Below are positions 25,920 through 28,718 of a DNA stretch of 31,175 nucleotides, piece after piece. A program made the translations under genes and the position numbers. Below the pieces are notes generated by a model. The model saw only the letters and a program-made list of their open reading frames with translations, did no database searches and was not told where the DNA came from. The stretch's first letter is position 1; each line of letters starts with the position of its first letter. The stretch comes from Chlamydiales bacterium (GTDB taxonomy: Bacteria; Chlamydiota; Chlamydiia; Chlamydiales; JAAKFR01): contig JBIOXR010000105.1 of the NCBI GenBank assembly GCA_044869735.1, positions 1-31,175 on the forward strand. Reading direction: 5' to 3'.

Positions 25920-26631
25920 CTCGTCCTATAACAGCAATACTATCAGTAAGGGGAATATTTTTGGGACAGACTTCGACGCAATTCTGCGCATTCCCGCAAT
26001 CGCTAATTCCCCCTTTTTCCATCAACGGCCGCAACCGCTCCCTTTTTTGGAGCCTACCTGTGGGGTGGATACTAAATAAGCGGGCCTGGGAAATGACGGC
26101 AGGGCCTATAAACGGAGATTTTTCATTAATTTGAGGACAGGCTTCGGAACAGCAGCCACAAGTCATACAGGTTGCCAGAGAAGCCATGATCTCTTGCTTG
26201 GCCGGAGTGACGGGCGGGCCACCTCCTTGAGTAGACGATCCTTCTGTGTCGATCCAGGCATGGACTTTTTTTAATCCCTCAAACATGACCGAACGATCGA
26301 CAATGAGGTCTCGCACTAAAGGAAATTTAGTAAAAGGAGCCAGTGTGATAGTGCGGCATCCCTTTTTTAAATAGTTTTCTATAATGGCTGTACACGCTTG
26401 GCGGGGAAATCCATTGATGAGCATGGAACAGGAGCCGCATACCTCTTCTAAGCAGCCTGCTTCAAAGGCCACTGGGGTAACGATTTCTCCTTTCGCGTTC
26501 TTACAGAATTTCTGAATCTCTATGAGGGCTGAAATTACATTCTCTCCTTCGCGCAAAGGGAGCTCGAACTCTTCCCAGTATTGCTTCCCGGGAGACCCTC
26601 TCCAAATTTTCAGAATAAACTTCTGTTCCAT
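25867..26631 (-). CDS. sdhB: Succinate dehydrogenase iron-sulfur subunit
   Basis: CLEEVCGSC...RQAC, CMTCGCCSEACP and CGNAQNCVEVCP Fe-S motifs. Confidence 0.97.
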   Translation of the reverse strand: MEQKFILKIWRGSPGKQYWEEFELPLREGENVISALIEIQKFCKNAKGEIVTPVAFEAGCLEEVCGSCSMLINGFPRQACTAIIENYLKKGCRTITLAPFTKFPLVRDLIVDRSVMFEGLKKVHAWIDTEGSSTQGGGPPVTPAKQEIMASLATCMTCGCCSEACPQINEKSPFIGPAVISQARLFSIHPTGRLQKRERLRPLMEKGGISDCGNAQNCVEVCPKNIPLTDSIAVIGRDVTLQAFRDFLTLHEKE

Positions 26632-26646
26632 GAACCTATCCTACTA

Positions 26647-26777
26647 ATCGAAAATAACGCTTTTTGCACCTTTTTTCACCTCTTTTGACGCCGCTTCTTG
26701 GCCTACTTATTCAAGTATGTCCTGCGAAGCGGCGTCAAAATATGTGAAAAAACCCATCAAAAATCATTAGTTTCGAT
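26647..26777. mobile_element. Palindromic element copy 2 (hairpin A), putative non-autonomous MITE-like element
   Basis: Perfect 15-bp inner stem TTTTGACGCCGCTTC (26683-26697) / GAAGCGGCGTCAAAA (26726-26740), with further pairing out to ATCGAAA/TTTCGAT. Flanked by TA at 26645-46 and 26778-79. Shares its core with 7421-7584. Mobility is inferred. Confidence 0.6.
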
Positions 26778-26779
26778 TA

Positions 26780-26824
26780 TAGTTGATTCAGATTGAAAAG
26801 GAACATTTTGACCTGAATCAACTA
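26780..26824. mobile_element. 45-bp mini inverted-repeat element (hairpin B), putative MITE remnant
   Basis: 12-bp perfect IR TAGTTGATTCAG (26780-26791) / CTGAATCAACTA (26813-26824) with a 21-nt loop. Flanked on both sides by TA (26778-79, 26825-26). Confidence 0.45.
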
Positions 26825-26837
26825 TAGTAGGATAGGT

Positions 26838-28718
26838 TCAAATATGTGTAGATAGATTAACTGGGATATTTTTTAAAGTAGGCTTAACTTTCTTTGCGAC
26901 GACGTAGTCGCGCGGCTCGGGATCGAGATGGCGTAGATCGACTTTCTCATAGGTAATCTCAGGTTCTTCCGAACGGTAGCTAGCAACCGTAGTCTTCAAC
27001 CAGTTCTCATCATCTCTCAAGGGAAATTCTTTTTTGTAGTGGGCTCCTCTACTTTCATTGCGATAGAGAGCCGATAAAGTGATGGCAAGAGCGATCTCGA
27101 GCATTGCTTTAAATTGATGGGCAAATTGAAATACCTGATTGGCGAACTGTCCTTTGTCTGAAAGGGAGATATGGCGATATCGCTCTCTTATCTCTTTAAT
27201 TTTGTTTACTGTCTCTTGCAAATCTTTGTTATTGCGAAGCACCGTTACATTGTGTATGAGCCAAGCGCCTAATTCTTCATGTAGCAGAAAGACATTTTCA
27301 CTTCCTTCTTGGGCAAAGAGCTCTCCCTTTCTCCTCTCTTCTTCTTGCACAGCTTCTTGGAAAATCGTTTCTGTTGGTGGCGGAAAGGAGAAAGAATCGA
27401 GATAACGGGACCCCTCTTCACCCGCGACTATGCCCCCAAAAATGCAAGCGAGCATCGCATTAGCACCCAAGCGATTTGCTCCATGATACTGGTAGTCCGA
27501 TTCACCTACATTGAAACAGCCGGGTATATTGGTCATTTGGCGAAAACGAGAGGCTCGGTCGACATCATCGGCTGCTGGCCAATCCACCCAGGCACCCCCC
27601 ATCGAATAGTGGACCCCAGGGAAAATTTTCATGGAGACTTTTCGGGGATCTTCTCCAGTAAACTTTTTGTAGATATCGAGCACCGAATCGAGCTTATGCA
27701 ATGTTTCTGGCGGGAGATGGGTAACGTCGAGATAGACGGCATTTTTTCCATCGACTCCCATTCCCATCTGGCACACGCGCATGATCTCTCGCGAACCTAC
27801 ATCTCGCGCCACCAGATTTCCATAACCGGGATAGAGCTCTTCGAGAAAATACCACCTCTCTCCTGTGATGCCGCAGGGAATGGGCTCTCCTTTTGAATTG
27901 AGAATTGTTTTGCTCGAATCTCCCCAAACCCAGACCCTACCTCCTTCTCCCCGCACCGATTCTGAGATGAGGCGCATTTTGTCAATGCCAGGAATAGAAG
28001 TTGGATGCACTTGAATGAACTCGCCGTTGGCATAGCGCATCCCTTGCATAAAAAGCCTTCCATTTGCTGCTCCCGTGCAGAAAGTAGAGTTGGTCGATTT
28101 TTTGAAAATTAACCCTGGACCTCCAGTAGCAAAGATAATCACGTCGGCTTTGAGGATCTCGAGCTTAAGATTAAAGAGATTGAGAAGAACAATTCCCCTT
28201 GCTCTTCCTTGGGAATCAAGAGCAAGGCGCAAAAATTCATGGTTTTCAAATTTTTCAACCCGTCCTTTCGCTTCAAACCTACGCACTTGCTCATCGAGAG
28301 TATAGAGCAGTTGCTGTCCCGTCGAAGCTCCGCAAAACACCGTGCGATGATAAAGCGTACCCCCAAAGCGGCGGACATCGATATTCCCCCTCGGGGTACG
28401 ATTGAAGGGGCAGCCACACCGATCGAACATATCGATAATGGAGGGGGCCGCAAAACACATCTCCACTACAGGAGGTTGATTTGCGAGGAAATCGCCTCCT
28501 TTGATCGTGTCGTAGGCATGGATAACAGGGGAATCGTCTTCCCCATAAACATTTACAGCAGCGTTTATTCCCCCCTGAGCGCATACGGAATGGGATCTTT
28601 TAACTCGCGTGAGAGAAATGAGTTTTACCCGCACATTTTTTTCTGCCAAACGCATCGTGCAGGAAAGACCCGCTAAACCTCCCCCTACAACAATCGCTTC
28701 TCTAGTTTCTCTCGCCAT
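26838..28718 (-). CDS. sdhA: Succinate dehydrogenase flavoprotein subunit
   Basis: IVVGGGLAG, RSHSVCAQGG (FAD-His), QVHPT, SESVRGEGG, HYSMGG, HGANRLG and ESRGAH motifs. ATG 28718 overlaps the sdhC end. Confidence 0.98.
   Translation of the reverse strand: MARETREAIVVGGGLAGLSCTMRLAEKNVRVKLISLTRVKRSHSVCAQGGINAAVNVYGEDDSPVIHAYDTIKGGDFLANQPPVVEMCFAAPSIIDMFDRCGCPFNRTPRGNIDVRRFGGTLYHRTVFCGASTGQQLLYTLDEQVRRFEAKGRVEKFENHEFLRLALDSQGRARGIVLLNLFNLKLEILKADVIIFATGGPGLIFKKSTNSTFCTGAANGRLFMQGMRYANGEFIQVHPTSIPGIDKMRLISESVRGEGGRVWVWGDSSKTILNSKGEPIPCGITGERWYFLEELYPGYGNLVARDVGSREIMRVCQMGMGVDGKNAVYLDVTHLPPETLHKLDSVLDIYKKFTGEDPRKVSMKIFPGVHYSMGGAWVDWPAADDVDRASRFRQMTNIPGCFNVGESDYQYHGANRLGANAMLACIFGGIVAGEEGSRYLDSFSFPPPTETIFQEAVQEEERRKGELFAQEGSENVFLLHEELGAWLIHNVTVLRNNKDLQETVNKIKEIRERYRHISLSDKGQFANQVFQFAHQFKAMLEIALAITLSALYRNESRGAHYKKEFPLRDDENWLKTTVASYRSEEPEITYEKVDLRHLDPEPRDYVVAKKVKPTLKNIPVNLSTHI

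Follow-up and report, generated by a model that had tools for sequence, protein, structure and literature searches.

A nested foldback insertion between sdhA and sdhB of a Chlamydiales bacterium, and a possible route for translation across it

How could the second gene of an operon be translated when its start site is folded away against the stop codon of the first? The question is raised by the sdhA-sdhB junction on contig JBIOXR010000105.1 of a Chlamydiales bacterium (GenBank assembly GCA_044869735.1), whose 31,175 nucleotides form the window of this study. In the open reading frame (ORF) list of the window, sdhA encodes the flavoprotein of succinate dehydrogenase/fumarate reductase (26838-28766, minus strand; Pfam FAD_binding_2, 1.6e-66, and Succ_DH_flav_C, 2e-37), and sdhB encodes the iron-sulfur subunit (25867-26631, minus strand; Pfam Fer2_3 and Fer4_8). 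Both genes are intact, and by Pfam sdhB has all its domains. The TGA stop of sdhA (26840-26838) and the ATG of sdhB (26631-26629) are separated by a spacing of 206 nt, which is occupied by mobile DNA. Our reading, to which we assign a probability of roughly 55%, is that a nested insertion entered a tight stop/start junction, that the helix hiding the sdhB start is the terminal inverted repeat of that insertion, and that sdhB is initiated when the ribosome terminating on sdhA unfolds it.

The helix in question is the outer stem of the spacer, an inverted repeat of 16 nt with 100% complementarity between 26631-26646 and 26825-26840. On the mRNA, the outer stem extends from the sdhA UGA to the A of the sdhB AUG. 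Its 5' arm, UGAACCUAUCCUACUA (26825-26840, minus strand), includes the sdhA stop, and its 3' arm, UAGUAGGAUAGGUUCA (26631-26646, minus strand), holds a Shine-Dalgarno (SD)-like AGGA (26642-26639) located 7 nt 5' of the AUG, together with the A of that AUG (26631). The minimum-free-energy fold of positions 26620-26850 on the minus strand was a three-way junction in which the outer stem meets a short and a long hairpin. The energy was -100.2 kcal/mol, compared with -44.0 +/- 4.4 kcal/mol in 200 shuffles (z = -12.9), none of which was as stable. The stability lies so far above chance because the region consists of palindromic mobile DNA. The first-pass annotation, made from the letters alone, had described a perfect 16-bp helix closing a three-way junction from the sdhA stop to the sdhB AUG, and all of its coordinates and sequence details proved correct. 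It had also placed the AGGA inside this helix, in agreement with a computed probability of 0.00 that the AGGA is unpaired.

Other sdhA-sdhB loci reveal what the junction looks like without the spacer. The gap between the sdhA stop and the sdhB start was -4 to +20 nt in 24 of the 26 relatives from the same family and order, often with an ATGA overlap, and -14 to +27 nt in 68 of the 72 loci found in metagenomes. In an alignment, SdhA of the window ends at the same column as 19 orthologues, and the start of SdhB, MEQKF, matches the orthologous position in relatives (MESF, METF). Because the junction is tight in relatives and both proteins keep their orthologous ends, the 206-nt spacer is, by this comparison, an insertion placed exactly between the ancestral stop and start. 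None of the 99 other loci that were searched had a copy of the 165-nt element described below at the sdhA-sdhB junction, and a search of metagenome contigs for the exact junction pattern found no relative with the same insertion; the best SdhB relatives among these contigs are only 71% identical. Reconstructions of the pre-insertion sequence as ATGA, TGATG or a short spacer each require an extra deletion or substitution.

The same survey yielded other enlarged junctions. On metagenome contig Ga0207056_1076 (L164:1324-1500), from another lineage, an unrelated near-perfect palindrome of 177 nt lies at the sdhA-sdhB junction, with its SD (GGAGGA) just outside the stem. Oversized gaps were also present at L049 (147 nt), L050 (85 nt) and L179 (81 nt). 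The sdhA-sdhB junction has apparently been struck repeatedly by foldback DNA. On metagenome contig Ga0180431_10003524 (L156:1379-1502), from another chlamydial lineage, a copy of the 165-nt family lies about 40 nt past the sdhB stop, which is a different junction of the same operon.

Sequence comparison resolved the insertion in the window into two parts. The whole composite covers 212 nt (26630-26841, minus strand), namely a 165-nt foldback element and a further 47 nt, which are a 45-nt miniature element plus one duplicated TA. When the 47 nt are removed, the sdh copy is exactly 165 nt long and matches the consensus of 41 distinct copies at 132 of 165 positions (80%). A covariance model (R1) built from five copies in this genome scored 124.5 bits on the sdh copy at 26650-26774 of the minus strand, as against 52 bits on the opposite strand. 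Three unpaired motifs are conserved among copies of the 165-nt family, and in the sdh copy the inner long hairpin (26645-26779, minus strand) carries the motifs GATTTTTGATGG, GACATACTTGAATAAGTAGGCC at the apex, and GCAAAAAGCG between covarying stems. The inner stems vary between copies yet stay complementary, with compensatory changes at 18 of 48 predicted pairs among six copies.

The 45-nt miniature inverted-repeat transposable element (mini-MITE; 26780-26824, minus strand) consists of two fused inverted-repeat ends and forms the short hairpin of the three-way junction. It sits at a TA within the 165-nt element, and TA flanks it at 26825-26826 and 26778-26779. A copy with 98% identity, also with TA on both sides, was found at G000:C60:1896-1940. 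The arms of the mini-MITE match the ends of a TA-flanked, perfect foldback element of about 170 nt (C37:5597-5768, -124 kcal/mol), the ends of which lie at at least 12 contig ends of this assembly (contigs C64, C29, C15, C138, C43, C84, C118, C10, C125, C135, C21 and C148). Judged by its arms, the mini-MITE is a miniature form of this second foldback MITE family. We had also considered it as the joined ends of an insertion sequence (IS), and discarded this idea in favour of a short form of another foldback MITE; a search of the genome for an IS630-type transposase (Pfam DDE_3) as its parent found none. On these comparisons, two non-autonomous foldback mobile elements, one nested in the other, have entered an originally tight stop/start junction and form the sdhA-sdhB spacer.

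We then looked for the termini of the outer stem in other copies of the 165-nt family, and they were present in many. The ends of the family are ATGA...TCAT, and 42 copies from several genomes have the termini ATGA[A/G]NCTATCC...GGATAGNYTCAT. The canonical terminal inverted repeat pair, ATGAACCTATCC...GGATAGGTTCAT, is the outer stem of the sdh spacer: ATGAACCTATCC is the consensus terminus for the 5' arm and GGGATAGGTTCAT that for the 3' arm. The terminal 12-mer occurred 85 times in genome G041, compared with no occurrence of its reversed control. The sdh copy ends in TTGAACCTATCC...GGATAGGTTCAT, so that the terminal 12 nt at each end are identical to the consensus except for the first base, a change that would be synonymous in sdhA for an ancestral ATA codon. 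Because the sdh termini match the family consensus, the outer stem is, on the evidence of its letters, the terminal inverted repeat of the element, and the pairing of stop and ribosome-binding site (RBS) was inherited with it and did not evolve at the sdh locus. The proposal in the first-pass annotation that the stem keeps SdhA and SdhB stoichiometric despite the insertion therefore fails as a locus-specific adaptation, since the stem came with the insertion itself.

The 165-nt element is widespread among the relatives of this bacterium. Matches to the covariance model occurred in 19 of 29 genomes of the same bacterial family and in 12 of 17 genera, and were always much stronger on one strand (about 100-138 bits against 40-55 bits). 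Copy numbers ranged from 0 to more than 37 per genome; one genus of this bacterial family, whose complete genomes measure 2.4 Mb, has 5-9. A motif scan of named genomes found the family in metagenome-assembled genomes of Chlamydiota, Chlamydiales and Rhabdochlamydiaceae. The element has the properties of a MITE: it is 165 nt long, its longest frame has 52 codons and belongs to no Pfam family, its terminal inverted repeats are conserved, and its dispersed copies differ in presence and absence, as seen from the variable copy number and the empty sdh junctions elsewhere. In a subfamily with GAG termini, the copies have matching 3-bp flanks that differ from copy to copy (TAA, TTA, TAT) and represent target duplications; these copies frequently overlie the stop of an upstream gene, and the following start is then 8-54 nt distant. 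The GAG-terminus subfamily also accounts for all four other full-length copies of this genome. One of that subfamily lies in the window (7421-7584, plus strand; 138.5 bits), where its end is 13 nt upstream of the ATG that opens a 357-aa ORF. The sdh copy belongs to the ATGA subfamily, whose flanking AT never varies and could be either a duplication or part of the repeat.

In genomes G020, G041 and G024, pairs of termini were mostly 165 nt apart and otherwise about 256 or 41-73 nt apart, with two pairs at about 330-400 nt. No pair in these three genomes lay at the spacing of a full-length IS, which an autonomous IS with the same ends would show; such a partner may exist elsewhere. The mini forms of 41-73 nt, such as G020:C1:1500992-1501046, are essentially two fused ends, and a longer variant of about 256 nt is exemplified by G041:C2:9448-9703. 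Rfam gave only two chance-level hits and no family at the sdh spacer, and searches of the literature turned up no account of such an element from Chlamydiae.

Where the family inserts, and what its ends supply there, bear directly on the fate of sdhB. In 35 of the 42 other ATGA-type copies, a long ORF of 77-580 aa begins at the terminal ATG. A long upstream ORF also ends at or near the opposite end in 20 of these 35, and in 14 cases it ends at the TGA inside the terminal ATGA. The 5' end gives the upstream gene a TGA stop, and the 3' end gives the downstream gene GGGAUAGG (AGGAUAGG in the sdh copy) and the AU of its AUG. The layout with the stop in the 5' arm and the SD and start in the 3' arm is repeated at many unrelated gene junctions. 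[quoted passage not shown] Read in the opposite orientation, the element always meets stops, in most cases at codon 19 or at codon 27, where the apical loop supplies a TGA. The 52-codon frame accounts for both the strand asymmetry and the orientation bias of the family; inspection by eye found no conserved internal promoter in the 165-nt element that could cause the bias. The 52-codon peptide has no Pfam family, and a word-based search with it retrieved only two unnamed database entries of 52 aa (P0001 and P0002), which are likely to be element-derived frames and not ordinary genes.

The sdh copy departs from this pattern. Relative to the sdh mRNA it lies in the orientation that lacks the 52-codon frame, and it is also split by the mini-MITE. 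No frame crosses it; only a 7-codon frame starting with UUG (UUG AAC CUA UCC UAC UAU AGU UGA) is present at its 5' end, where it overlaps the sdhA stop. In the absence of a bridging frame, unfolding of the helix by the terminating ribosome would be the most plausible route to sdhB translation.

We examined by computed folding whether such unfolding would free the sdhB start. In the folded state the sdhB RBS and AUG lie in a helix of about 20 kcal/mol. When 6-12 nt past the stop were held single-stranded, at a cost of 16-20 kcal/mol, the AUG became unpaired with a probability of 0.8-1.0. On the operon mRNA, a helix of about -20 kcal/mol would keep the sdhB RBS closed; a ribosome stopping at the sdhA UGA would cover the 5' strand of that helix and release the RBS; and sdhB would be translated mainly when sdhA is translated, a coupling by RNA unfolding over 206 nt. 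Since the 5' strand starts within the sdhA stop, the helix has to be opened by any ribosome that terminates there. The RBS is here paired with sequence covered by the upstream ribosome, which is the arrangement that defines coupling of this type, and coupling by RNA unfolding is established at spacings such as the +52 nt of rpmI-rplT (PMC12548453). Unfolding appears the likeliest route because sdhB is intact and the element has resided there long enough to receive a second insertion. The suggestion in the first-pass annotation that a ribosome terminating on sdhA would expose the sdhB site is thus supported in its mechanics, namely a sequestered RBS, a 5' strand that starts in the stop and an AUG freed by opening; the arrangement itself did not evolve at this locus.

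Several points weigh against this reading. While the 5' arm is open, weak pairing is possible between the released SD and early codons of sdhB. A 16-bp helix on a pre-folded junction should re-form fast behind a departing ribosome, which may leave a 30S subunit little time. Most members of the family bridge stop and start by the 52-codon frame, which the sdh copy lacks, and the reversed orientation is rare at the junctions of ATGA-type copies (the sdh copy and L093, against 35); this rarity suggests a disfavoured arrangement and not a designed solution. Transcription through the spacer from sdhA into sdhB is assumed. Finally, a promoter-like site at the 5' edge and RNase III would offer other routes to a free RBS.

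The strongest alternative, although we hold it unlikely, is that the element is a tolerated, selfish passenger that has simply not destroyed sdhB expression. The pairing of stop and RBS would then have no role, and sdhB translation would be reduced and uncoupled from sdhA, relying on breathing of the helix or on co-transcriptional initiation before the 3' arm pairs. A stem inherited from the element and not shaped at the sdh locus fits this account, and so do an insertion that is unique to this genome among about 98 loci and an orientation that is rare at junctions, as expected if it were mildly harmful. However, hardly any independent initiation should remain under a perfect 16-bp helix of about -20 kcal/mol over SD and AUG. 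Even so, sdhB is intact, and the element has stayed long enough for the mini-MITE to enter it and for its identity to the consensus to fall to 80%.

We regard it as less probable still that RNase III cuts the long duplexes, separating the sdhA and sdhB transcripts, freeing or shortening the sdhB leader and setting stability. The genome encodes the enzyme (rnc), the outer stem stacks on further perfect helices of at least 15 bp, and in Neisseria RNase III binds to Correia elements and cuts or protects them (PMC2649163, PMC2229807). A cut in the outer stem could nevertheless remove or damage the SD and AUG region, which lies inside the duplex, and the family shows nothing specific to RNase III beyond being double-stranded.

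There is only a slim chance that a promoter created by the mini-MITE starts a transcript inside the short hairpin, past the 5' arm of the outer stem, and so leaves the sdhB RBS free and uncoupled. A consensus scan found the promoter-like TACACA-N18-TATAGT (26850-26821 on the minus strand) with 9 of 12 matches, in which TACACA lies in the 3' end of sdhA and TATAGT arises at the junction of the duplicated TA with the mini-MITE end. This single site in the spacer equals the 1.0 +/- 1.1 expected by chance in shuffled sequence and is not evidence of function; moreover, its -35 hexamer is weak, and promoter rules of environmental chlamydiae are uncertain. A structured RNA that evolved in place between sdhA and sdhB, as a riboregulator or small RNA gene, is hardly credible and was rejected in spite of the extreme fold stability and the covarying stems, because the junction is empty in relatives, Rfam has no match, and the element is dispersed over dozens of unrelated loci, varies strongly in copy number and, in one subfamily, is flanked by 3-bp target duplications.

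Among small repeats of other bacteria, the closest in working principle are the mycobacterial interspersed repetitive units (MIRUs). As reportedly described by Supply et al. in 1997, these are small intercistronic repeats whose short frame overlaps or abuts the flanking stop and start, so that translation passes between the genes. MIRUs are direct or tandem units of 40-100 bp without long inverted repeats. The chlamydial family is similar in lying between co-oriented genes (20 copies) with a frame that abuts the upstream stop and the downstream start. In contrast to MIRUs, it is a 165-nt near-perfect foldback with terminal inverted repeats and a built-in SD and start, and its sdh copy has no bridging frame; the resemblance is therefore one of working principle only.

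The family also resembles the Correia elements of Neisseria (also NEMIS or CREE), foldback MITEs of 100-155 bp that are co-transcribed with their neighbours and whose hairpins can be cut by RNase III (PMC2649163, PMC2229807). Both are foldback MITEs with terminal inverted repeats, and in both the ends are able to supply signals for the expression of neighbouring genes (PMC2649163, PMC2229807). Correia elements, however, insert at TA, make promoters and do not lie on stop or start codons, and their 155-bp form has stops in all frames, whereas the ends of the chlamydial element coincide with a stop codon and a start codon. The ERIC/IRU, YPAL and RPE families share with it a small size, a palindromic and mobile nature, a frame open in one orientation and orientation-dependent effects on neighbours (PMC2229807). 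They too are tolerated in transcribed or translated regions, and RPEs also occur in obligate intracellular bacteria. Unlike the chlamydial family, they fuse in frame into genes or occupy untranslated regions, and none has been described with stop, SD and start in its inverted repeats. With these signals inside the inverted repeats and a bridging frame between them, the chlamydial family is, as far as its sequence features go, distinct from Correia, ERIC, YPAL and RPE.

For the mechanism, the nearest precedents are the gene pair rpmI-rplT and those of phages MS2 and f1, in which the downstream RBS also lies in a helix with a strand of the upstream cistron and is opened by the upstream ribosome (PMC12548453). 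Those cases span up to tens of nucleotides and involve evolved local structure. In the sdh spacer the two strands are 178 nt apart and, in the computed fold, are joined by the hairpin of a mobile element.

A more tentative idea goes beyond the reading preferred for the sdh junction. The family might serve environmental chlamydiae as a mobile 'intercistronic adapter', with stop, SD and start in its inverted repeats and a mini-ORF bridging them, and at sdh the hairpin alone might transmit coupling over about 200 nt; we hold this to be possible rather than probable. If so, the element could land inside operons without uncoupling them, and the reversed, ORF-less sdh copy would be a natural experiment on coupling by the hairpin only. 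If coupling by unfolding does operate at sdh, a compact, operon-rich intracellular genome would be able to absorb mobile DNA at stop/start junctions, where it is most sensitive, because the element carries its own translation signals. Copies with and without the frame, in both orientations and at dozens of junctions, would then provide a natural test of long-distance coupling by RNA unfolding. In practical terms, the hairpins account for overly long gaps between genes, for spurious gene calls of 52 aa and for breaks between contigs in metagenome assemblies of chlamydiae.

The genes around sdhA and sdhB add two minor observations. Directly upstream of sdhA, an ORF of 338 aa (28702-29718, minus strand) gave no Pfam match at E <= 1e-5; it shares 65 nt with the longest ORF call of sdhA and occupies the position where a membrane-anchor or cytochrome b subunit is expected. 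Downstream of sdhB follows a gene for a PMT_2-type glycosyltransferase (24393-25919, minus strand), whose longest ORF call overlaps the 3' end of sdhB by 53 nt and whose true start probably lies further downstream.

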